A DNA stretch of 47,389 nucleotides from a bacterium. Its GTDB lineage: Bacteria > Bacteroidota > Ignavibacteria > UBA10030. Positions 2,703-20,032 of the stretch are shown here, one piece after another (position 1 is the first letter of the stretch; each line of letters begins with the position of its first letter). The notes below the pieces were generated by a model. It searched no databases. It was not told the origin of the DNA and saw nothing but the letters and a program-made list of their open reading frames with translations. The stretch is taken from contig JAZDJN010000073.1 of the NCBI GenBank assembly GCA_043803945.1, forward strand, positions 1 through 47,389. Direction: 5' to 3'. A program made the translations under genes and the position numbers.

Positions 2703-5462
2703 TCATCGTACTATCAGTGTTCCGCTGAGGCGGATATCTTTAGACGAGGCTCCGATCATTACCCGAAACTCACCCGGCTCCACAACCTTGTGCAACTGTT
2801 CATCGAGCATCGAGAGCATCTCGGGTGTCAGATCAAATACAATCTCCATCGACTCACCGGGGTGAAGATGAATTCTCTGAAAGCCTTTCAACTCCAGCAC
2901 CGGCCTTGCTACCGAGGCGAGCAAATCTTTGATATAGAGTTGAACAACTTCATCTCCTTCACAAGTACCAGAATTCTTAAGCGTGAAAGATACTTCCGAT
3001 GTTCCATTGACCGGGATATTTTGCGGATCGAAACTCAATCCGCTGTACTCGAATGTTGTATAACTCAATCCATAACCAAAAGGAAATAGCGGTTGGCCTG
3101 TGAGGTTCTCGTAATCATCGCCGCGGCCGGTTGGTTTGTGGTTATAGACCAGCGGTAATTGTCCTTCAAACACAGGAAAAGTAATCGGCAGCCGTCCCGC
3201 AGGATTCTCATCTCCGAAGAGTATCTCGGCAACTGCTGTGCCTCCTTCTTCACCCGGATACCATACATCCAGCACACCATCCACTTTATTCAGCCAACTG
3301 TCCATCGTGATTGCACTTCCGCCAACCAGTACCACGACAACAGGTTTGCCAGTTGCCGCCAGCCGCGTAATCAACTCTTCCTGGTGACCGGGAAGGTTAA
3401 GCTTCGCTCTATCTCTGAATTCACCCTCTTCGATTCCCGCAACAACGATAACGATATCGCTTTCTGAGGCAAGAGCTGATGCTTTGTCGATTTCTTTTCG
3501 CCAGGATTGAGTAACGCCAACATTCCAAACCAATCTGAACCAGGCATTGCCTGTAGGTTCAAAATACTCGATCCGGAGTTTGTACTCCTTTCCTTTCTCG
3601 AACTGGACATCTGCCACAATTGTCTGCCGGCTCACTTTCTTCCAGTTGTCAATCAGGAGTTTATCATCGAGATAAAGACGGTAACCATCATTTCCATCAA
3701 TCCCGATTTTAAAATTCCCTGTCACCGGTGCTTTCAACTTTCCCTGCCATCGAACTGAATAGAAATCATAATTCAGTTTTTCAGGATCGGGAGAAAAGAG
3801 AGTCCACTGAAACTGTATTTGCGCGTCAAACCGTGTAAAAGTCGGTTTCCCATTGAACGAAATGTTATCAAAATATTCACCCAAGACACCATGCCGGATT
3901 GTATCATTGATGGAACAGAGCAGATACTCGGATGATATTGTAACATAGTCAGATGTAGAACGACCAGGACCCCTGGCATATCGGATGCGGGCAGCAGCCC
4001 CGGCCTTGTTCTTGATACCGTCGAGGATGCTAATCTTGTTAATTCCCGGACCGCTGTATCCGCCCAAACGGGCTTCAGCAGCATCCTCCCCAATGACGGC
4101 AATGGATCGAATATTTTTTTTCAGCGGGAGGATTTGGTTTTCGTTCCTGAGCAACACAATTGATTTCCGGGCTGCTTCGAGTGCAAGCTGCCGGTGTTCT
4201 TTTCGACCGTTCCAACGAGCCGCATCCTGAGCATTGACATAAGGATTTTCAAATAAGCCCAGCGTAAACTTTGCACGAAGAACACGTTCAACGGCGGCAT
4301 CGATCACTTTCGTGTCAATTTTTCCTTCCCGGAATGCTTTGATGAATAGGGGATAATGATCGTACGATGTCTGGAAAATGACATCCAATCCGCTGCTGAT
4401 AGATCGTGCTGTTGCTTCGGTATAATCCTTCGCCGTGAAATGAAGAACATTCGCGCCACCCACAGCACAGGCATCGGAGATGACAAATCCGGCGAACTTC
4501 CATTCATCCTTGAGAAGCTTGTTGTTCAGCCAGTCGTTCGCAGTAGCGGGAGATCCATCAAGCGAGTTGTACGAAGTCATGATCGATCGTGATCCGCCCC
4601 ACTGGAGACAGGCCAGGAATGGAGGAAGATACACTTCGCGCAGGAGGCGTTCGTTGAAATGAATCGGGTAACTGTCGCGGCCCCCATCACCCACATTGGC
4701 AAGAAAATGTTTTGGTGTTGTGATAACTCCAAGTTTTTCAAATTCGGAGACAAAGGCCACTCCCATCTCTGATGATAAGAAGGGATCTTCACCATACGTC
4801 TCTTCCACTCTCCCCCATCGGACATCACTGACGATGTTGACGACCGGCGAGAGAATTTGCCGAATGCCGCGACTCTTGCACTCCCAGGCAATGGCTTGCG
4901 CAATCCGGTGCATCAGCGATGTGTCGAACGATGCCGCAAGCCCTAGCGATTGCGGGAAGGCAGTGGCTCCCTGCCGCACCAAGCCATGCAAGGCTTCATC
5001 AAAAGGGATAATCGGTATTCCAAGACGTGTTTCCTCAAGAAAGAATCGCTGGATTGCGTTAATCTTTTCGGCTGTCTCTACGGCGGTAGTGCCGGCAGCA
5101 TATGTCAGTATCTGGCCGGTTGCATCTACGGTTTGGCCTGACGTACTGATCTGAAAACCGAAGATGCCATTCTTATACTTATCTTTTCCTCCGCTGAGGT
5201 CACCTGGGATCATAAACAACTGCCAGAATTTTTCTTCCAGCGTCATCCGTGAGAGCAAATCCCTTACACGTGATTCCAAAGAGGCCGTAGGATCTTTGTA
5301 GATCTTCTTGTCCTGGATTACTCCATCACCTATCGGACCTGCATGTGTCTGCGAGGATGTTGAATATGCAAGGATGGAACTTGATTGAGCGAGGAGTTCC
5401 ATCGCTGGATTCAAATCAACCAACAACACAATCAAAAAGATAATGACTGGAGATCGTCTCAT
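2703..5462 (-). CDS. GH3 beta-glucosidase/beta-xylosidase with PA14 insertion and C-terminal Fn3-like domain
   Basis: MTLEEK, RLGIP..DEALHG, RWGRVEETYGEDP, KHF, FVISD nucleophile, PA14 segment (YSVRWQG...DGYRLYLD), PFGYGLSYT, EVVQLY..ELKGF. Confidence 0.93.
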   Translation of the reverse strand: MRRSPVIIFLIVLLVDLNPAMELLAQSSSILAYSTSSQTHAGPIGDGVIQDKKIYKDPTASLESRVRDLLSRMTLEEKFWQLFMIPGDLSGGKDKYKNGIFGFQISTSGQTVDATGQILTYAAGTTAVETAEKINAIQRFFLEETRLGIPIIPFDEALHGLVRQGATAFPQSLGLAASFDTSLMHRIAQAIAWECKSRGIRQILSPVVNIVSDVRWGRVEETYGEDPFLSSEMGVAFVSEFEKLGVITTPKHFLANVGDGGRDSYPIHFNERLLREVYLPPFLACLQWGGSRSIMTSYNSLDGSPATANDWLNNKLLKDEWKFAGFVISDACAVGGANVLHFTAKDYTEATARSISSGLDVIFQTSYDHYPLFIKAFREGKIDTKVIDAAVERVLRAKFTLGLFENPYVNAQDAARWNGRKEHRQLALEAARKSIVLLRNENQILPLKKNIRSIAVIGEDAAEARLGGYSGPGINKISILDGIKNKAGAAARIRYARGPGRSTSDYVTISSEYLLCSINDTIRHGVLGEYFDNISFNGKPTFTRFDAQIQFQWTLFSPDPEKLNYDFYSVRWQGKLKAPVTGNFKIGIDGNDGYRLYLDDKLLIDNWKKVSRQTIVADVQFEKGKEYKLRIEYFEPTGNAWFRLVWNVGVTQSWRKEIDKASALASESDIVIVVAGIEEGEFRDRAKLNLPGHQEELITRLAATGKPVVVVLVGGSAITMDSWLNKVDGVLDVWYPGEEGGTAVAEILFGDENPAGRLPITFPVFEGQLPLVYNHKPTGRGDDYENLTGQPLFPFGYGLSYTTFEYSGLSFDPQNIPVNGTSEVSFTLKNSGTCEGDEVVQLYIKDLLASVARPVLELKGFQRIHLHPGESMEIVFDLTPEMLSMLDEQLHKVVEPGEFRVMIGASSKDIRLSGTLIVR

Positions 5463-11600: not shown

Positions 11601-12624
11601 CTTCGGCTGAAGAGGCGAGTAGTTCATTCTTTCGGTTCCACCGCTTCAGAAATGCCTGCGATGTGAGCGACCCTGCCGAATGGTTTGTGAGAAGAAGTTC
11701 GCCCCGATACTTTGGCAATGCCGCTTTCTGTTCGGTGGAGATTGAGGTGAAGAAAAGATCGGCAGGAGCGGAGAGAACTCTGATCGGCCCTTTGCTGGTA
11801 AGACTCTTTTCAATCCACTGCACCGATTCCTCCGTCGGTGATCCGCCGATATCGCCGGTGCCATAATAGATGTACTCAGCAGAGATGCCTGATCGGGAGA
11901 AGTTATCATCGATTCGTTTTAACCATGCAGAACTTTTACTGAGATCTTCCCGAATCTTTGAGACATAATCTCCCGGATTGAAACTTACAATCACGCCGTT
12001 ACCATCCGGGCCAATCCATGAGCCGACATTGAATGGAATGCCAATTGCTGAACCCCATGTAAGTTTTTGTGTCGAGAATCCTTTCAAACCGACGTGTGCC
12101 AGAATCGAGGGTAGCGAAGCAGGAAATCCGAAGCAATCGGGAAGCATGTATTCATAGCTTGCTTTCCCAAGCTCTTTGTGGAAATAATTATTGCCGTAGA
12201 GAACCTGGCGGAGAATGGATTCCGAAGATGGTATTAGCGCATCATTCTCTTCCATGGAGGATCCGGCAGGAAACCAGCGGTTGTCTGCGACGTATTGCTT
12301 CATACGTTCGTACTCAGCCGGATAATACTCCTTCATCATCCTGTACCGGTTCGCACCACTGAAGTTGAAAACGTAGTTTGGATATTTCTCGAAGAGCCGG
12401 AAGTTATCGAGCAGTGTGTTTTTAATGTACTTGCTGATCGTCATCTGATAATCCCAGCGCCATTCGGTATCGAGGTGGGCGTAGCCGAGAGTAAACAAGG
12501 TTTTCTCTTTTGAGATGTTCACGGTCGGAAGCTGGAGTGGTATTGACTGATTCTGTGCAGAAGCGAGGGAAAGCAAGAGAGTAACGATGGTAATTGACAC
12601 CAGGAGTGCTTTTACTTGAGGCAT
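8623..12624 (-). CDS. GH38 alpha-mannosidase with C-terminal Fn3-associated (CHB_HEX_C-like) and F5/8-like domains
   Basis: AHLDTEWRW, LPDCFGF nucleophile motif, GD.GG, QFHDIMAGT, IYYTTNGSIP, WIFVDEI; signal peptide. Confidence 0.93.
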   Translation of the reverse strand: MPQVKALLVSITIVTLLLSLASAQNQSIPLQLPTVNISKEKTLFTLGYAHLDTEWRWDYQMTISKYIKNTLLDNFRLFEKYPNYVFNFSGANRYRMMKEYYPAEYERMKQYVADNRWFPAGSSMEENDALIPSSESILRQVLYGNNYFHKELGKASYEYMLPDCFGFPASLPSILAHVGLKGFSTQKLTWGSAIGIPFNVGSWIGPDGNGVIVSFNPGDYVSKIREDLSKSSAWLKRIDDNFSRSGISAEYIYYGTGDIGGSPTEESVQWIEKSLTSKGPIRVLSAPADLFFTSISTEQKAALPKYRGELLLTNHSAGSLTSQAFLKRWNRKNELLASSAEAASLMAEWLGGIAYPREKLNEAWRLVLGAQFHDIMAGTCIPRGNEFAWNDETIALNQFANALSDAVGAVSRSLDTEAKGIPIVVYNPLSIRREDVTEATVDFSSSAPKAIQVFNGDGNAVPSQVLRREGSRLTILFLATVPSVGFAVYDVRPAEKETEQSKLLQISKQIVENEHYKVTINSAGDIASVYDKAAARELLAEPARLAFLYERPEDYPAWNMDWADRKNPPVGYVDGHPRVRIVESGPVRVALEVDRESRGSRFVQHIQLTLKGERVEFDTYIDWYTKESSLKASFPFTVSNPLATYNTGVGTIQRGNNNPKKFEVPSQQWFDLTAKDGSYGVSILEDSKYGSDKPSDNTLRLTLLYTPGVRGGYMDQATQDFGKHRMLYALYGHQGDWRTANSQWHAARLNQPLVAFQTLRHPGALGKSFSFLSLSSDDVAVMACKKAENSDALILRLVELKGKESKNVQLKFAGTIVAAEEVNGQEQHLASLQPVDGKLTIDMTSYQLRTFALTLEKPATSLSLPKSQSVALPFNVDVISSEKKKQDGAFDKSGASLPAEMLPALITSEGVSFTFGSTKDGEKNAVACKGQSITLPSGMVNRLYLLAASTEDHTRGEFKIDGKSFPVMVQSWSGYFGQADNRTWDNYEWRESNYTWENIIYTGLIPGYVKQDNIAYFTTHRHLANGENEPYIYTYLFKYALDIPTGAKVLTLPDDERIRLFALTAAYNENDNTHPAQSLYDTLNVEAGEYERYMVCSQPRILPEYRIMEEGQKVEITMSANEKDASIYYTTNGSIPTTASSIFKRPFIIDRTTIIKAMTVKEGKAPSAVKEESYYRAYKVEKAEYLTQYSPRYAAAGDMALIDSKRGPTSYSNKAWQGFEGNDLEVILDLGIVKPIHKVSVSCLSTNGSWIFRPVAVEIAAAGENKNFSIIGSEHYDSPSSNEGVFIKLLAPSLKQTQVRYLRVKAKNMGLCPPWHPGTGEKAWIFVDEIIVE

Positions 12625-12760
12625 ACCAGGTTCTCCAAAAATAGAATTCGTAGAAATCTGATTTGATGTGACAGGAAGGTAGAATTATTTGGGGGGAGAT
12701 GCAAAACGAGAATATTACTGTCCGTGGATGTTCTTAAGGAAAGTTGAAGAGAATCTCGTT

Positions 12761-13114
12761 CTAAAGTACTAGCGTCGCCGCTGATGCAAGTTGTCGACGA
12801 ATGGAGGTAGTAAAATTACCTTGTATGAGTGAATGAGCGGGATTATCACATCGAGGGGCATGCAAACACGCCAGACCCAATGAGAGAGGTACTGAAGCTT
12901 CAAAACGGGCCAGACGATATTTTGTCCGATCTATAATGGCAACGTCAGGTGTTGTAAGCCTTTCAAGGTCGACAGACAAACCATCAACATCTCTTTTACC
13001 TGGTTTGAATGCAAACGAAGATATGGTATTATCAGGTTTAATATAGGATGGATCAAGGATAATTCTTCTTAGAAGCCCATCATTCTCAGCAATGACCTCT
13101 ATTTTAAAATCCAT
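12761..13114 (-). CDS. Small hypothetical protein with ADP-ribosyltransferase-like (R-S-H) motifs; putative toxin
   Basis: 117 aa with LLRR near the N-terminus, AF, GLSV and NPAHSLI. Last gene of a tightly coupled three-gene cassette. The fold is an inference. Confidence 0.55.
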   Translation of the reverse strand: MDFKIEVIAENDGLLRRIILDPSYIKPDNTISSFAFKPGKRDVDGLSVDLERLTTPDVAIIDRTKYRLARFEASVPLSLGLACLHAPRCDNPAHSLIQGNFTTSIRRQLASAATLVL

Positions 13115-13116
13115 AG

Positions 13117-13584
13117 TTATCTAAGCCATTGAAGAATTTTTCTTTCATCCACACTGTTGCTCTCTTCGAGGCATTTATTTCCTTCGAACATTGCCGAGGT
13201 AGATCGTCCTTCATTGTCAAAGGTTATCTCAACCGTTCTGTTTCCATTCATCAACTCTACAAGGATTTCCCCGTCGGGACCAGGAGCAGTAAAAAAAACC
13301 TCAAAGCCTTTTCGATCAAGAGAAGCCACGAGTGACGTTGCGCAATCAACAACACCCTTATGGGGTGGTATGCCCCCATAGCTGTTCCAATTCTCTTCAA
13401 GTTTTAAAAATGATTTCAGCTTGCTGATCGTCTCGATTGCTTTATCTGACAATTCATATTCCTTTAAGAGTGTTGTTGAAGCACGAGTGTGAAATGTAAG
13501 ATCAACAAAAATAAAAGGGGGAAAGAGAGTGCTCGTACCCTCAAATGTTCTATGATCAAGAACTGCACTATCTAAGGCTGTCAT
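13117..13584 (-). CDS. Hypothetical protein, putative antitoxin partner
   Basis: 155 aa with L..L..NWNSYGG.PP and P.PDGEI.VE....VEI.F motifs. Overlaps the upstream gene by 17 bp and ends 2 bp before the downstream gene. Confidence 0.6.
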   Translation of the reverse strand: MTALDSAVLDHRTFEGTSTLFPPFIFVDLTFHTRASTTLLKEYELSDKAIETISKLKSFLKLEENWNSYGGIPPHKGVVDCATSLVASLDRKGFEVFFTAPGPDGEILVELMNGNRTVEITFDNEGRSTSAMFEGNKCLEESNSVDERKILQWLR

Positions 13585-14329
13585 AATATTCTTTCCTTAA
13601 CATACGCTTAAATAAAGCAGAGATTGATGAATGAGCATACTGGATCCATTGCTTAATATCATCCGGAGTGAATTTCGTCTCTTTAAGGATTGCTGTCTGC
13701 CAAACAATAACCGGATTATTATTCTTCATTCCATTTGATATTACAATTTGTAATTGCGAGTTATCATCCAAAGAGTACACCTGGCTAATTGATTGACCCT
13801 TGATTCTGCCAGAAATATCAAACTCCTTTACAACTTTGATTTGTAAGTGTGATTCAATGAACTGTAAAAAACTATCTTCTGCTTCAGTGTTTAATTCTAC
13901 CGCGTCAATATATCGCAGAGATACTTTCTTAAACTGTGGAGGTTCCTTATAGCTCCTCAGCAAGGCGTCAAGAGCTTGGAGGATGACAGGTTGAAACTTT
14001 GTTTCCCAAACATATGTTTTTTCCGTGATATTCGCAGCGAGAATTCCAGGGCCCAATTGAATAACAGGCCACTCATTTGGTGCAGTCCAAAATTGATGTA
14101 CCGGTTTATGATTTAATAATTGTAATGGTGCTAATGGTGGAGCAATTTTTCTGTGATGAGGATAATCCTTTGACAAATAGCTTGAGAAAACACCTTGAGC
14201 CAGTTCAAAGCCTGGATCGTACTCTGAGCGACTTTTGTCATCAACGTCAAGTTCCCAAAAAGCCTCAAATATCACTTCCTGCAAAGGGGCTTTTGTTAGT
14301 TTTATGATATGACTATTCTGAGAGTTCAT
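13568..14329 (-). CDS. TIGR04255-family protein
   Basis: 253 aa; N-terminal L.KAPLQEVIFE, IQLGP, Y.WE.F and SLRYID are motifs I recognise from this family. Confidence 0.75.
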   Translation of the reverse strand: MNSQNSHIIKLTKAPLQEVIFEAFWELDVDDKSRSEYDPGFELAQGVFSSYLSKDYPHHRKIAPPLAPLQLLNHKPVHQFWTAPNEWPVIQLGPGILAANITEKTYVWETKFQPVILQALDALLRSYKEPPQFKKVSLRYIDAVELNTEAEDSFLQFIESHLQIKVVKEFDISGRIKGQSISQVYSLDDNSQLQIVISNGMKNNNPVIVWQTAILKETKFTPDDIKQWIQYAHSSISALFKRMLRKEYYDSLR

Positions 14330-14448
14330 TGTATGTAAAAAATACGTAAATAATATATAGATTTATTTTCACTTACGCTTAGGGTAAATCTTTCTTCATA
14401 CTGTTTTGACTGAAGGATTGTGCAAATTGTTCCATTTAAATGGCATTT

Positions 14449-15567
14449 TCACAATTCACCCTTTATTGCCTTATCCAATATCAATGGCCGCAGCGCGTCC
14501 AACTCCTTCGAGGTTTCTTCCTGCAATCGCTGAAGTTTGTCCACCTCAGCTTGTAATGCGTACAACTCAGCGACGATGCGGCGCTGCTCGGGGAGCGGAG
14601 GAATGGGAATTCGCATTGGGTTGATTTTCTTTTGCGAGACCACTGGTTGAGCTGCCTGATTTGCTTGTCGTCGTAAATCCAAGTTCGTCAATGCTTGGAC
14701 GAGATATGGGGAGTCGAGGTTGTTTGAAAACTCTGTGATATAGAGCGCGTTGTCAGTTATCCAAGACTTCGGTTCAGACACGAACACACAACCACACCGT
14801 GCACCGACACGCCCGATAACAATCTTCGGTTCTTCAAACAGGTAGCGAGAATAATGACCGTTCAGACCGCCACCACCATAAACTGGAAACAGTGCAGATT
14901 CATCCATTTGACTTGAAGTAAGTCCTTCACCACTTGCCATCGAAATCAATTCGCAGAGAGGATGATTCGGGAACCGAGTTGAGAGCTTGGTAAACCGAAC
15001 TGCTCGCGAGTAAGAAACTATCACTTCGTTTTCTTCGATGGCTTGTTGGCGGATGGCGCGCGCCTCTTCTATTTGTGCTGCCAGTTCCTCTATCCGCGCC
15101 ACGATGCGGCACTGCTCTTCCAACGGCGGGAGAGGGATTTGAATGGATAGAAAAAGATCAGGTTTGATTCGGTTCTTGCCGCTTGTCCCTCCTGATTTTT
15201 CATCACAGGCTTCCCAAAACCATTTGGTCTTTGTAATCCAGTGAAACCATTTTGGATTGAGCACACTTCTAATTGGAGAAAAAATAGGAAACTCACTCGA
15301 TCCGAAGCTACCAGCAAGATCATTATCTACAACCGCAACACTTCCATTTCTTGCCCATATCTTATTGACAAGAATATCACCTGGTTCCACTCTAAACAAT
15401 AACGCATACTTGGTTTCGACTCCATCGATTGATTCTCGCTCATAAGCACCTTGCCCCCAAAGTCTCACGCCAATCTGCCTATACGTTTTACCAGCAATAG
15501 GTATCTCTGCTCTTTGTACTGGAACTGCAACATTGCGAATTTCAGCAAGTGGAAACTGTTTGCTCAT
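14449..15567 (-). CDS. hsdS: Type I restriction-modification specificity subunit (two TRDs)
   Basis: Two conserved-region repeats, IPLPPLEEQCRIVARIE and IPIPPLPEQRRIVAEL; C-terminal ILDKAIKGEL. Confidence 0.92.
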   Translation of the reverse strand: MSKQFPLAEIRNVAVPVQRAEIPIAGKTYRQIGVRLWGQGAYERESIDGVETKYALLFRVEPGDILVNKIWARNGSVAVVDNDLAGSFGSSEFPIFSPIRSVLNPKWFHWITKTKWFWEACDEKSGGTSGKNRIKPDLFLSIQIPLPPLEEQCRIVARIEELAAQIEEARAIRQQAIEENEVIVSYSRAVRFTKLSTRFPNHPLCELISMASGEGLTSSQMDESALFPVYGGGGLNGHYSRYLFEEPKIVIGRVGARCGCVFVSEPKSWITDNALYITEFSNNLDSPYLVQALTNLDLRRQANQAAQPVVSQKKINPMRIPIPPLPEQRRIVAELYALQAEVDKLQRLQEETSKELDALRPLILDKAIKGEL

Positions 15568-15587: not shown

Positions 15588-15906
15588 TTATTGCGTGCCT
15601 CGTTTTGAGTTGACCTTGTACCCAACACTGATAATGGCATCCAGATTAAGGTATTCTACCTTGTATGTTTTGCCATCCGAGGCAGTTTCCTGCAAAATAT
15701 GCAACAACTGAGTCCCTCCGTAATTCCTTTGTTTTGAAGATGTTATTCAAATGACGAGAAACCACTGACTTGTCTCTCCGAAAGAGATCGGCCATTTGAT
15801 TTAGGCTCAACCACACCGTCTGTTCTTCGAGAGTCACCTCAAGAGCCGCCTCCCCATCCTCAGTGCGGTAGACAGCGATCTCGCCCCTGCCTGGTTGTTG
15901 TTTCAT
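15588..15906 (-). pseudogene. rhuM: RhuM/virulence-protein-family fragment, frameshifted and truncated
   Basis: MKQQPGRGEIAVY...TVWLSLNQMADLF.RDKSVVSRHLNNIF...VVAYFA, then a +1 shift to ETASDGKTYKVEYLNLDAIISVGYKVNSKRGTQ-stop. Confidence 0.85.
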
Positions 15907-17065
15907 TGTTGGGCAAACGCACAATGGTATGCAGGTTGAACTCCTTGAGCAATTCTTCTTTAATGCGCGCACAGACTCCGTCGCCAAAAAGTGTTCCGTT
16001 TGGAACAACAACGCCTGCACGTCCAGGCTTTGGCAGACGCCTAAGCTTCCGCATAATCAATTGAAGAAAAAGTAATGTAGTCTCTGCCGCCTGTTTATCT
16101 TCAGGAAAGTTGTTCAGAATGCCGCGTTCTTCTTCTCCACCGAATGGCGGATTTGTTAGAATCACATCCACGCGATCCTTGTCGCCAAGCTCCGCTAACC
16201 GGAACCGCAAACTGTTGCCTGGATCTATTCTGGGAGACTCAAGTCCGTGTAAGAGTAAATTCATCTGCGCAAGGAGATAGGGAAGCGACTTCGCTTCTCC
16301 GCCAAGAATCGATTGCGATTGGAAAATCTTGCGGTCCTCTACTTTCTTGCATTGCTTCTCAAGATGAATAAAGCTTTCAACAAGAAATCCGCCCGTACCG
16401 CAGGCAGGATCAAGAACAATCTCACCGAGTTTTGGATCGAGCACTTCTACCATAAAGCGTACAACTGCACGCGGTGTGTAGAATTCTCCGGAATCTCCTG
16501 CTGAATCCCGCATCTCTTTTAATAGCGATTCATAGAGATGGCTCAGCGTATGGGTTTCATCTGAAGAGTTGAAATGAATCGAGTTGAGTTTATTGATGAC
16601 ATCCCGAAGGAGATACCCATTGATCATCCGGTTGATTGTTCCCTTGAACACCGTTGCGATCACATCACGTCGGTCTCCGCCATTTGCGCCTTGCAAGCTG
16701 TGAAGATAGGCAAACAGTCCGGGACCCTTTATACCGTCAGGGCGCAATGCTTCTTCATTATTGATGAAGGCAATAAGCTCATCGCCGGTGATTCCATCTT
16801 CTTTTGCCGCCCAGTCGCGCCAACGGTATGGTTTCCCAATTGCCGGTTTGAATCGTTTCCCTTCAAGCTTCGATTCTTCTTCCCGGAGTTGTTCAAGGTC
16901 ATCGAGAAATTTCAGGAACATAATCCAGGTGAGCATGGGGAGGCGATCGAGGTCACCATTCAAACCCTTATCTTTCCTCATGATATCCCGTGCGGATTTT
17001 ATTATCGAACTGAGAGATTGGGCTGTTGTTAAAGGTACCGCTGTTTTCTTTATGGTTTTCTTCAT
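15860..17065 (-). pseudogene. hsdM: Type I R-M N6-adenine methyltransferase, C-terminally truncated
   Basis: GEFYTPR, DPACGTGGFL, NPPFGG, VVPNGTLF. Homology stops at LHTIVRLPN (about 15908), where the frame runs into the rhuM start. Confidence 0.88.
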
Positions 17066-17233: not shown

Positions 17234-17533
17234 TTAGATCTCCCACTCAGAACTTAAGTCTTTCCATTCGGGATTCATCGATTCAACCAGGTGGTTCTTT
17301 TTCTCCCGCCGCCACTTTTTAATTTGCTTTTCACGCATGATAGCTGAATACAAATCGGTTGTGTGTTCGTAGTACACGAGCTTATTCACATTGTATTTAC
17401 TCGTGAAACCCTGGACCAATTTGTTTTTGTGCTCAGTTAATCTTCGTATCAAATCATTTGTCATACCAACGTACATGACCTTATTGTTCCAGTTTGTCTG
17501 CAGGTAGACGTAGTAATTGCGATACCGTCCCAT
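17234..17533 (-). CDS. Stand-alone GIY-YIG nuclease (UPF0213/YhbQ-like)
   Basis: YYVY...MYVGMTNDLIRR..EHK...FTSKYNVNKLVYYE...AIMREKQIKKWRR.KK..L....NPEWKDL; RBS AGGGAGG. Confidence 0.93.
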   Translation of the reverse strand: MGRYRNYYVYLQTNWNNKVMYVGMTNDLIRRLTEHKNKLVQGFTSKYNVNKLVYYEHTTDLYSAIMREKQIKKWRREKKNHLVESMNPEWKDLSSEWEI

Positions 17534-17665: not shown

Positions 17666-20032
17666 CTATGCCGCATAGAGCAGTGATTGCAATTCATTTA
17701 CTGCTTCCCGTAATTTTTCGGCACCACCAAACTTCTTTGCTATTTCTAAGACATTGCCATACTTGTCCGCTATCGAAGGCATTTTCAATACATCGGGAAT
17801 AATGAACTGTGCCGTCCCATGTTCAGCATACTTCTCGAGCAGATCTTCAAGAATTGTTTTCGCATCCGTTCCGTACTTTTCAAAGAAGTCTTTCTTTTCT
17901 TTCCGCACCCGTTCGGCGTGTTCGCGCCTGGTTCTCAGCGGGGCATTGAACGCAACGTGACAAAGCAAATCAAATGGATCAGCGTCTTCTTGATGCGTGG
18001 AAGCAGCTTATTCATCGAAGTTGATTCCGCGTCTAACTTTTCTATTATCTCCGAACGCCCCTCTGGCGTTACCCATTGTTTTCGCATATCTGCCGATGAA
18101 GGGAAGAGGGTTCGAACTTTCTCTGCTGTATAATCTGTATACTTTACAACGCGGAGTTGTTTGCCATCCGGATCGAGTTCATACACCAGATGTGCTGCGA
18201 TCTCAACATGGCCGCCATCGAAGTAGTATTTTCGCTTGTTGCCCTCTGAGTCATCTGAAATCTTCGCGACATAGGTTGCATCTGAATCTGAGGCCGTTGG
18301 AGCATTCTCTTCCACAACGGTATATGTTGTCGGAATTGTGTTCCCGTCATCATCAATGGATTCCTCGGTAATGATTGCCGGATCTCCGTCGAAATCTTTG
18401 TCGGCAAATAACCGGGTTGCAGATCCTGTATAATTCAGAATATTGAAAAAGTATTTTCCGTAATCATCCCGAACCCGTGTGCCGCGGCCAATGATCTGTT
18501 TAAACTCCGTCATCGAATTGATCACCCGTGCAAGAACGATATTCTTGCAGGTCGGAGCATCCACTCCGGTCGTCAGAAGCTGGGAGGTGGTGAGAATAAC
18601 AGGAGAGGGAGTTTCCAGTTCCTGGAACCTCGACAGGTGCCCTCGCCCAATATCTCCTTCATTCGACGTTACCCGGCATACATAGTCCGGAAATTGCTGA
18701 ACAAGATCTGAATTCAGATTGTTTAACGCCCTCCGCATCTCATCGGCATGTTCCTGGTCCACACAGAAGACCATCGTCTTGGCATAGCGGTCAGATTTCT
18801 TCAGGAACTCCGTGAAATGTTTCGCGATGGCGGTTGTTCGTGCACGTAGAGCCACAACACGCTCAAAATCTTTTGTCTGGTATTCTTCATCCGGGATTTC
18901 CCGGCCATACCGGTCAAGGTCATCTTTGCTTGGTCTCCAACCGGCCGCATCATAGCTTGCTACCACCCTACGGACACGATAGGGCGCCAGAAAACCGTCA
19001 TCGATTCCCTGTCGCAGACTGTAGGTATAAATGGGATTGCCGAAATATTTGTAGGTGTCGCGGTTATCCTCACGCAGCGGCGTCGCTGTCATACCCAGTT
19101 GAAAGACCGGATGGAAGTATTCGAGAATCTCCCGCCAATTACTTTCGTCCGATGCGCTTCCCCGATAGCATTCATCGACAATAATAAGATCGAAGAAATC
19201 CCTGGCATATTCCCGATAGAACCCCGGGGCGCCGTTCATCTTTAGCTATTGCCTGATAAATGGCAAAGTAAATTTCACGGCTTTTTATAGCGTTGCCGTT
19301 TTCAATTTTCCATCGAGCAGCGCCAAAGGGAGCAAATATTTTATCTTTTGGGTCATCAACAAGAAACTTCCTGTCGGAAAGATACAGAATGCGTGGCTTA
19401 CGGTGATCACCGGTTCTATTCCATCGCGCATTCCAGAGCTTCCAACAGATCTGAAACGCCACGTCGGTTTTGCCTGTACCGGTTGCCATTGTTAAAAGAA
19501 TTCGTTTCTTCCCTTGAAGTATCGACTGAACAGATTTGTGAATGGCGATATCTTGATAATAGCGTGGTATCTTTCCGCTTTGAATATTGTAAGGGGTAAA
19601 TAATTTCTTTGAAACCTCTTCGTCTATTGATTGAGAATGACTGAGTCTATTCCACAAATCATTCGGTGACGGGAACTCAGGGATTTCTTTTTCTTTTCCC
19701 GTTAGAAAATCGAACTCGATGATGGAATGACCATTTGTTGAATAGGCAAATTTGAGCCCGAGTATAGATGCGTACTCTTGGGCTTGCTGTAATCCTTCAC
19801 CGGCCGACTTGAAGGCAGCTTTTGCCTCAACAACAGCAATCACATAATCGCGTGTGTACCTGATGAGATAATCGGCCCGCTTCTGTGGACGTCGAATGGG
19901 GCCTTTATTGGTTATAATGATACGACCATCCGTGAAGCTTCGTTGCTCGGTAAACGAATGGGGATCATTATCCCAACCCGCGCTGATAAGTTTTGGAAGG
20001 ACAAATTTTCTACACGTGTCGGCTTCGGTAAG
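17666..20032 (-). pseudogene. hsdR: Type I restriction endonuclease R subunit (EcoEI-like), multiply disrupted
   Basis: TEADTCRKFVLPKL, VVEAK, MATGTGKT, IVDECYRGSA, GMTATP, QIIGRGTR and an EcoEI-type C-terminus. Frameshifts near 19225 and 18030, an in-frame TAA at 18008-18010, and no in-frame ATG at the N-terminus. Confidence 0.9.

Follow-up and report, generated by a model that had tools for sequence, protein, structure and literature searches.

The window examined here is a contig of 47,389 nucleotides from an environmental bacterium of the Ignavibacteria (GTDB lineage Bacteria; Bacteroidota; Ignavibacteria; UBA10030; GenBank assembly GCA_043803945.1, contig JAZDJN010000073.1, positions 1 to 47,389 of the forward strand). 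It carries a compact cassette of three genes, 1.57 kb in total, that we refer to as A, B and C: A encodes a protein of the TIGR04255 family, B an acidic, antitoxin-like protein, and C a small protein with a predicted ADP-ribosyltransferase (ART) fold. The three genes form a conserved operon, B and C are homologous to the phage defence candidate PDC-M32, and the arrangement of a TIGR04255 gene followed by two small genes recurs in other genomes. We see a little better than an even chance that the trio is a horizontally acquired, three-part module of the toxin-antitoxin kind, probably directed against phage, in which C would be the toxin, B its neutraliser and A a third partner. New here are the recurrence of TIGR04255 in front of toxin pairs that are interchangeable, MazF pairs among them, and the fold evidence and triad statistics for C.

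Three coupled genes form a conserved operon

A scan of one genome per species for encoded relatives of C gave 32 loci, all from metagenome-assembled genomes of Ignavibacteriales, Bacteroidota, Kryptoniota and Chlorobiota. Comparison of the open reading frames (ORFs) at these loci by phmmer showed that all 32 have C, that 31 also have B immediately before it and that 30 have A before B in turn, with the order A-B-C kept throughout; at one locus (L025) the contig is too short to hold genes upstream of C. Because the trio recurs in 30 of the 32 loci it is not a chance pattern of ORFs: it is a conserved operon. The trio had been picked out in a sequence-only reading of this stretch, made by a model without database searches.

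The spacing of the genes is also conserved. At the loci that keep the three genes complete, the overlap of A and B measures 17–29 bp (28 of 28 loci), and the distance between B and C lies between −26 and +13 bp in 25 of the same 28 loci, the exceptions being L002 (where the start is uncertain), L005 and L030. In the window the gap between B and C is 2 bp, as read from the junction sequences; the three co-oriented genes, their sizes, the 17-bp overlap and this gap are exactly as the sequence-only reading had them. Judged from the reading frames, the overlap of A and B is likely to couple their translation.

A minimal ADP-ribosyltransferase fold with an R-S-H triad

In a collection of 5.8 billion proteins C has 29 relatives besides itself, none with a Pfam domain. 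C has no Pfam or NCBIfam match at E≤1, and by this measure is not a sequence member of the RES, DarT or ParT families; nor is there a match among PDB sequences, whether C is searched as a single protein or as a profile. Single-protein searches of A, B and C against solved structures returned nothing, comparison of all three with PHROGs gave nothing below E 0.06, and no relative of C was found on viral contigs.

Structure is more informative. An AlphaFold2 model was built from alignment A1, which holds 23 of the 30 collection proteins (seven close duplicates or fragments were left out), with a predicted local distance difference test (pLDDT) score of 94.6 and a predicted template modelling score of 0.86. 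The best VIA-align match of the model is KptA (Z 8.3 over 93 residues, root-mean-square deviation (rmsd) 3.6), followed by AvrPphF ORF2 (Z 7.9), mouse Tpt1 (Z 6.7), Tse2 (Z 6.0 over 101 residues, rmsd 3.2), RES toxins (Z 5.2 and 3.8), DarT (Z 4.6) and ParT (Z 3.3). Further matches are to diphtheria-, pertussis- and cholera-type toxins, Tre toxins, Arr and PARPs; among the 50 matches listed the large majority are, by title, ART or NAD-toxin proteins. With Foldseek the top 11 matches are all Tpt1/KptA (E 0.14–0.73, best probability 0.96, template modelling (TM) score 0.56) and the next is cholera toxin A. No single fold score is strong, but the list of matches is nearly uniform, and for this reason we accept an ART-type fold for C as modelled. 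The ART-like fold suspected in the sequence-only reading is upheld by this confident model and its ART-dominated matches.

That reading had also picked out the motifs LLRR, GLSV and NPAH. All three are present, and the residues they contain are conserved: among 137 representatives of the C family R16 is kept in 131, R17 in 128, S47 in 137 and H94 in 134 (the representatives are the best 150 of a profile search less 13, namely 12 proteins under 100 residues and one 4120-residue artefact). According to the secondary structure of the model, without superposition, strand 1 carries R16/R17, strand 2 carries S47, and strand 5 has H94 at its start. The R-S-E triad has the same order: R16 and S47 are those of the R-S-E clade, and the catalytic Glu of strand 5 is replaced by His94.

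The profile of C, run against 1.84 billion representative proteins, recovers 1444 clusters at E≤0.001 and 307 at E≤1e-10. Almost without exception these are stand-alone proteins of 110–150 residues. Minimal ART-fold proteins with an R-S-H triad thus make up a large family that stands on its own. One match of 4120 residues (P0039), aligned in 19 stretches, was discarded as a repeat-protein artefact.

Several known systems resemble the B-C pair. Tse2-Tsi2, RES-Xre, ParT-ParS and DarT-DarG each consist of a small NAD-fold toxin gene adjoining a neutraliser gene, and C is similar to their toxins at the level of fold. The differences are that no sequence relation of C to these toxins was detected (no Pfam match at E≤1), that B is not of the Tsi2, Xre, ParS or macrodomain type by sequence, and that none of these systems has a counterpart of the TIGR04255 gene.

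The structural match to KptA/Tpt1 raises the alternative that C is a nucleic-acid end-modifying or repair enzyme of that type, with A and B as its cofactors; the missing catalytic Glu of toxin-type R-S-E transferases could be taken in the same sense. We consider this very improbable. KptA and Tpt1 are built of two lobes, the N-terminal, RNA-binding lobe holding most of the catalytic Arg-His-Arg-Arg tetrad, whereas the 117 residues of C form one lobe only, with no counterpart of the RNA-binding lobe. C aligns solely to the C-terminal NAD-binding lobe of KptA (chain residues 74–180 of 9ld3_A), at an identity of 11–16%, with no sequence-level match and with the triad R-S-H. Furthermore, PemK/MazF toxins fill the same TIGR04255-linked position elsewhere, and the distribution of the family is sporadic, as described next.

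TIGR04255 genes precede interchangeable gene pairs

Gene A matches NCBIfam TIGR04255 along the full length of the profile (E 1.7e-28, 100.1 bits against a cut-off of 30, residues 10–252 on profile positions 1–251 of 252), in agreement with the family named in the sequence-only reading, and it is the sole copy in a 5.5-Mb genome. TIGR04255 is present in 25 of 401 genomes of the phylum (18 of 180 genera) and in 0 of 14 control genomes. At 21 of the 27 other TIGR04255 loci two small co-oriented genes follow, overlapping or a few bases apart. At the remaining six, a PemK/MazF gene follows after a gap of 207 bp (L045), the contig ends (L051), the locus is fragmentary (L062), one gene follows (L064 and L065) or none does (L070). 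The TIGR04255 domain of L051 stands at the end of an open frame of 649 residues, without a Pfam match, on a 2.3-kb contig.

The third gene is of many kinds. It is of the C type at L059, L060 and L063 and of a second R-S-H type ('ART2') at L046, L054, L056, L057 and perhaps L067; by hhalign this second type has a probability of 68 against M32B, the smaller protein of PDC-M32, and of only 18 against the C family. PemK/MazF proteins are found at L048 (E 4.1e-13), L045 (E 8.5e-15) and the viral locus L073 (E 1.1e-5), and the third genes of L052 and L053 cluster with these by phmmer. L049 has a DUF7689 protein (E 4e-36), L044 a protein with a weak HEPN match below the cut-off (E 0.0043), and several further third-gene families have no Pfam or PADLOC match. 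One second gene carries a weak Xre-type helix-turn-helix (HTH). The fact that TIGR04255 also precedes PemK/MazF pairs adds weight to the logic of toxin, antitoxin and helper put forward in the sequence-only reading, which remains the best reading of the cassette. On this evidence TIGR04255 would seem to join toxin-antitoxin pairs promiscuously, as a third partner.

If the ART clade is set aside, the third gene most often found behind TIGR04255 encodes proteins of 175–272 residues with the pattern 'QGD ... [ST]xxC[DE] ... PY' (Table 1). The grouping was made by eye and is tentative: phmmer joins only pairs, and hhalign links two subgroups with a probability of 57. There was no Pfam match at E≤0.03 among the seven scanned and no PADLOC match among the three scanned (L075 and L077 were left unscanned). 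These proteins may be an undescribed toxin family.

In a maximum-likelihood tree of 37 TIGR04255 proteins, with third-gene labels assigned partly by eye, the proteins linked to the C type form one clade (support 95/98). Switches of the third gene occur within supported clades: MazF appears in the 'SxxCD' clade (99/95) and DUF7689 in that of the second ART type (96/87). Long branches leave some placements unsure.

The same layout recurs on viral contigs, at 6 of 7 loci; six of the seven are distinct. At one of these, L076, an R-S-H-like protein is encoded beside a terminase-like ORF; this ORF, of 637 residues, follows directly after the cassette on the IMG/VR contig (5887–7800, plus strand) and resembles a terminase large subunit by eye. 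Its position suggests that some cassettes are phage-borne.

A parallel is offered by Panacea (DUF4065), which the source cited here presents as a hyperpromiscuous antitoxin domain paired with many unrelated toxins (10.1101/2021.05.07.442387). The idea of one conserved domain serving many toxins is common to both. So far as that account of it goes, Panacea lies within the antitoxin, whereas TIGR04255 is a separate first gene, placed before a distinct second gene; the likeness is one of concept.

Table 1. Positions of the cassette in the window and of 'QGD...SxxCD' third genes at other loci
Feature	Position	Strand	Description	Basis
Gene A	13568..14329	minus	253 aa, TIGR04255 family, first gene of cassette	ORF list
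Gene B	13117..13584	minus	155 aa, antitoxin-like, second gene	ORF list
Gene C	12761..13114	minus	117 aa, minimal protein of predicted ADP-ribosyltransferase fold, putative toxin/effector	ORF list
A/B overlap	13568..13584	minus	17 bp; ATG of B within last codons of A	sequence
Presumed promoter region of cassette	14330..14448	minus	119 bp, GC 0.269, intergenic, upstream of A	composition
'QGD...SxxCD' member	L047:552-1157			by-eye pattern
'QGD...SxxCD' member	L050:2976-3792			by-eye pattern
'QGD...SxxCD' member	L061:588-1220			by-eye pattern
'QGD...SxxCD' member	L068:2568-3215			by-eye pattern
'QGD...SxxCD' member	L069:532-1080			by-eye pattern
'QGD...SxxCD' member	L072:5106-5699			by-eye pattern
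'QGD...SxxCD' member	L074:1880-2503			by-eye pattern
'QGD...SxxCD' member	L075:5213-5740			by-eye pattern
'QGD...SxxCD' member	L077:5092-5649			by-eye pattern

The second gene and the relation to PDC-M32

B has four relatives in the 5.8-billion-protein collection. Its N-terminal part of about 45 residues is variable, Ser/Thr-rich and of differing length and sequence; the conserved domain extends to the C-terminus and reads 'L..NWDSYGA..PS...A..F...(F/Y)F.APGP.GEILVE', with L62, W66, Y69, P101 and E119 invariant (alignment A4). What the sequence-only reading had said of B holds for the Ser/Thr-rich tail and for the NW.SYG block (W66 and Y69), but not for the hydrophobic patch PPFIFVDLTF, which is not conserved. 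B of the window has an isoelectric point (pI) of 4.9, and the median values are 4.6 for B against 7.9 for C, a charge pattern that would fit a toxin-antitoxin pair.

The ESM Atlas model of B (pLDDT 0.77) has as its structural neighbours unnamed proteins of 157–189 residues, with TM 0.59–0.67 over residues 43–155. In two of the neighbouring clusters a minority of members carry antitoxin domains, AF2212-like in one (37%) and PhdYeFM in the other (16%): a lead, not proof. No DNA-binding domain is recognisable in B by Pfam or NCBIfam. The profile of B against solved structures picked up a 51-residue stretch of mevalonate diphosphate decarboxylase (E 0.0026), which we take as chance. The sole trait common to the tails of second genes is a higher Ser/Thr content (0.21 vs 0.13, higher in 31 of 39). 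An expectation-maximisation search of the tails gave a candidate motif with a log-likelihood of 114.7 (shuffled mean 95.6, maximum 104.8); it was rejected, its sites being incoherent and driven by near-identical rows and the NWDS block.

Of the PADLOC models, C matches PDC-M32B (PDLC04579; E 2.8e-5, partial coverage) and B matches PDC-M32A in its C-terminal domain only (positions 259–337 of 375, E 0.0037). PDC-M32 is a two-gene 'phage defence candidate' of PADLOC; as far as literature searches show it is, to our knowledge, uncharacterised. The main texts covered mention it only as PADLOC matches in Sinorhizobium prophages.

Comparison of profiles by hhalign makes the relation firmer. The C family aligns with M32B at a probability of 98.4 (E 6.9e-15, 88 columns), the M32B set being drawn from five genuine PDC-M32 loci plus the related B-C loci L042 and L043, and the B family aligns with the C-terminal domain of M32A at a probability of 81 (E 1.2e-5). 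TIGR04255 against M32A is not significant (probability 0.3), and the N-terminal domain of M32A matches neither B nor A. None of five TIGR04255 proteins matched a PADLOC model at E≤0.01, the A of the window giving only a chance-level match to PDC-M05B (E 0.038). Full-length PDC-M32A is found in five genomes of one genus of the same phylum (E ~1e-133 to 1e-136); at L034 a 383-aa M32A overlaps a 122-aa M32B.

The two systems thus share a homologous protein, C or M32B, with the same R...S...H layout, and in both the two genes overlap or are tightly coupled. They differ in the first ~250 residues of M32A, which are another domain, absent from B and unrelated to TIGR04255: the cassette has an M32B-type protein in C and has no full-length M32A. 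On these profile alignments B-C is a distant variant of the PDC-M32 core, in which the N-terminal domain of M32A has been replaced by a separate TIGR04255 gene and the tail of B. A match to a system that already has a name, which by the sequence-only reading's own account would count against it, is present in part: B and C are distant relatives of PDC-M32, itself uncharacterised. PDC-M32 is in this way tied to a wider combinatorial network, in which the B-C core occurs with a fused N-terminal domain, with TIGR04255 or with other upstream genes.

Pairs of B-like and C-like genes are also found behind a 217-aa family (L040 and L042), behind a DUF3467 protein (L043) and with no such gene (L041). 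The 217-aa proteins (L040:2076–2729 and L042:2161–2814, both minus strand; the L042 copy has no Pfam match) precede B-like proteins with long N-terminal parts (205–228 aa), followed in L042 by the C-like protein. In L040/L042 this core occurs as a further variant of three genes, one that lacks TIGR04255. In the genome of the window itself, on contig C12, a 298-aa protein (L039:1357–2253, minus strand) matches only the N-terminal 250 positions of PDC-M32A (E 7.3e-47); its neighbours are a 141-aa ORF with a PIN-like look (926–1351, minus) and a 271-aa ORF (3–815, minus). It may belong to a separate candidate module that uses the N-terminal domain of M32A alone.

The fold of the first gene and its predicted contact

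A has no Pfam match and no HTH or ribbon-helix-helix (RHH), and its profile gave only matches at E≥0.82 among the sequences of solved structures. In the ESM Atlas the copy of A begins at residue 19, read as M, which points to an internal GTG start chosen by some gene callers; the conserved N-terminal block (L11, P15, L16 and E18) identifies the ATG at 14329 as the real start. A full-text literature search, which covered the articles themselves, found no paper on TIGR04255.

The AlphaFold2 model of A (pLDDT 88.8) can be read as a two-lobed antiparallel sheet backed by helices. In the PDB, Foldseek returns AdoMetDC/prozyme (E 1.5e-4), TATA-binding protein (TBP), rolling-circle Rep and PR-10 (TM≤0.32); in BFVD it returns 19 matches at E≤0.001, including giant-virus TFIID/VETF-like proteins (best TM 0.49). 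VIA-align gives taurocyamine kinase (Z 8.0 over 191 residues), arginine kinase (Z 7.8), McsB (Z 7.3) and RepDE (6.7), with GCL, GS, PafA/Dop and TBP lower. The structure prediction proposed along with the sequence-only reading, which had cast A as a possible SecB-like chaperone, thus came out differently for the two proteins: C is ART-like, and A has middling matches with SecB not among the 50 listed by Foldseek or VIA-align, a family absent from such a list not being excluded thereby. There is no SecB match by sequence either.

The list of VIA-align matches allows for A being an enzyme, of a guanidino-kinase-like or glutamine-synthetase-fold-like kind, which would covalently modify the tail of B, or a phage or host protein, and so switch the toxin. 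Guanidino kinases including McsB are the best whole-chain matches, with GCL, GS and PafA/Dop lower; the polar residues E18, Q91, N100, R139, Y140 and H233 are conserved in 24–28 of 31 diverse TIGR04255 members; and the tails of the second genes are rich in Ser and Thr. We think an enzymatic role quite improbable, because Z values of 8 or less lie in a range that the tool flags as common and A has no sequence match to such enzymes and no identified nucleotide-binding motif.

Contact between the proteins was modelled in one complex prediction, in which A was scored against B+C with alignments in matched locus order (three runs, three controls). The interaction prediction score from aligned errors (ipSAE) was 0.42, 0.03 and 0.50 (median 0.42), the best control, the B-replaced control included, giving 0.00; contacts agreed between runs to at least 0%, partner pLDDT was at least 80, and the verdict of the tool was 'weak support'. 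In the benchmark of the tool its pass mark is reached by 58 of 80 solved complexes and 2 of 110 mismatched pairs, and scores of 0.60 or lower are those of only 7 of the 80 solved complexes and of both mismatched pairs that pass. The prediction accordingly lends weak support to binding of A to B+C.

These data bear on the view that A is a transcriptional autoregulator of the operon, with B and C alone making up the toxin-antitoxin pair. Regulator-led three-gene systems are known (omega in omega-epsilon-zeta, PaaR in paaR-paaA-parE), and A-B-C has their order of regulator, antitoxin and toxin. Among the Foldseek matches of A are TATA-binding and rolling-circle Rep proteins, both of which contact DNA through a curved sheet, B lacks a recognisable DNA-binding domain, and B-C-like pairs without A occur (L017 and L041). 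Nevertheless an autoregulator seems to us unlikely: A is acidic (median pI 5.7, and 5.5 in the wider TIGR04255 family) and has neither HTH nor RHH, its TM score to TBP is low (0.24–0.32), the conserved A/B overlap fits matched amounts of the two proteins, and the weak predicted contact is gone once B is replaced.

A three-part model and its difficulties

In the model that we favour, with TIGR04255 as third partner, C would be a minimal ART-fold enzyme with an R-S-H active-site triad that uses NAD+. It would either ADP-ribosylate a cellular macromolecule, its closest match being the NAD lobe of the nucleic-acid-modifying KptA/Tpt1, or consume NAD+, leading to growth arrest. B would be the acidic neutraliser, its C-terminal NWDxYG domain binding and blocking C. 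A, made in step with B through the overlapping reading frames, would bind B, most likely at the variable Ser/Thr-rich tail, and control the stability of B or the release of C, for example on phage infection. The TIGR04255 family would play the same part for many unrelated toxin/antitoxin pairs.

The closest known logic is that of the toxin-antitoxin-chaperone (TAC) systems. In CmdTAC, as presented in the sources cited, the toxin CmdT is an ADP-ribosyltransferase, accompanied by the antitoxin CmdA and the SecB-like CmdC (PMC11618068; 10.1101/2024.02.24.581848). TAC systems, as far as these accounts describe them, and the cassette are alike in having three parts: a toxin, an antitoxin with an extension, and a third protein common to differing toxin-antitoxin families. 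They differ in several respects. The third protein here is TIGR04255, with SecB not among its listed fold matches; the order is helper-antitoxin-toxin; and C matches no PADLOC model except PDC-M32B. The sequence-only reading had likened the tail of B to a chaperone-addiction (ChAD) element. This does not hold: according to the part of the literature cited, ChAD is a C-terminal extension of TAC antitoxins (PMC6377645), whereas the extension of B is N-terminal and has no conserved motif. The cassette is neither a TAC system nor a strict member of PDC-M32, and it would work most like those two.

If the model is right, the sporadically distributed TIGR04255 family gains a role, and the SecB-based TAC systems are joined by another class of three-part toxin-antitoxin systems in which the toxins are likewise interchangeable. 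A broader version would make TIGR04255 a universal third component that docks on the variable N-terminal tails of unrelated antitoxins, setting their stability or sensing phage; these antitoxins would be the partners of R-S-H mini-ARTs, PemK/MazF, DUF7689, the 'QGD...SxxCD' proteins and others. On that view hundreds of three-gene systems of immunity or addiction, so far overlooked, would be flagged by the family, and the R-S-H mini-ARTs, with about 1400 representative clusters, would be novel toxins whose NAD chemistry departs from the canonical. This is possible, but we would sooner bet against it.

A number of observations weigh against the three-part reading. Toxicity of C, neutralisation by B, the contact of A with B and a role in defence are inferred. 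With C, Foldseek finds nothing in the PDB at E≤0.001 and a VIA-align Z of about 8 is within the range the tool terms common; its chemistry is uncertain, since it has His where canonical R-S-E transferases carry the catalytic Glu. The fold scores of A are middling (Z≤8.0, TM≤0.49) and give no function, and the complex score is weak, one run of three being at 0.03. The N-terminal tails of 39 second-gene proteins yielded no motif common to them. Fusions of A with B, or other long forms of TIGR04255, were not found at E≤1e-5 among 8000 candidates of 491–2000 residues, which is weak evidence. Housekeeping genes (DNA polymerase III alpha, transglycosylases, fucosidases) are common neighbours of the cassette. 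Lastly, A is broken or missing in places: one locus (L004/L059) has two in-frame stops in A (in L059 one TGA and one TAA) with B and C intact, and at another (L017) a B-C pair occurs with no trace of A by tblastn, B starting after the tail region. It follows that, if the copies of C at these loci are not inactive, survival of C does not always depend on A, and the strict addiction invoked in the sequence-only reading is put in question by both loci. L017 also has, upstream and on the opposite strand, a 202-aa ORF of unknown family (3553–4161, minus).

Genomic setting

The trio lies directly downstream of hsdS, as had been noted from the sequence; hsdS is an open ORF of 372 residues (Methylase_S, E 2e-20). 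The trio has a GC content of 0.398, compared with 0.47 for hsdS, 0.488 for the downstream GH38 gene and 0.471 for the whole window, so the higher AT content described earlier, for the genes and for their own upstream region (Table 1), is confirmed. A sigma-70 pattern scan of 12500–14700 gave 9 promoter-like sites against 5.4 expected, with a consensus that may not fit this phylum, and a terminator scan of the same interval gave 1 terminator-like site against 1.8 expected.

Up to two ORFs on either side of the 32 related cassettes, 97 in all, were compared with Pfam and PADLOC. Pfam matches include Eco57I-type methylases (5) and N6_Mtase (3), together eight R-M methylases, ResIII (3), Helicase_C (3) and SNF2 (2), and PADLOC matches include mad2 (4), ZorD (2), DpdE/F (2), PglX (2) and type I and type IIG enzymes. 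There is a real association with defence genes, but only a partial one.

This setting might also be that of a selfish addiction module, which stabilises the island or a carrier element and has no part in phage defence. The toxin-antitoxin-like layout would suit such a module, as would an AT-richer cassette that is intact beside decayed restriction-modification (R-M) genes and that is scattered elsewhere among unrelated, often housekeeping, neighbourhoods. We judge this rather unlikely: the cassette recurs near R-M and other defence genes and on viral contigs, it is kin to a PADLOC phage defence candidate, and the broken A beside intact B and C argues against strong addiction through A.

The island extends from ~12.7 to 19.9 kb and is flanked by glycoside-hydrolase genes. 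With respect to transcription, the trio is preceded by a decayed type I R-M locus. The hsdM ORF (15860–17065, minus; 401 residues) ends at position 216 of the 311 of the N6_Mtase profile, and hsdR is split across three ORFs in differing frames (19172..19843, 17935..19239 and 17666..17968). A 124-aa ORF (15646..16020, minus) overlaps hsdM in another frame and has no Pfam match; it is the presumed rhuM of the sequence-only reading. The contrast drawn in that reading between an intact trio and broken neighbours stands for hsdM and hsdR. Between the truncated hsdM and the hsdR fragments lies a 99-aa GIY-YIG ORF (17234–17533, minus; E 1.4e-14); it may encode a homing-type endonuclease, inserted as the R-M locus decayed.

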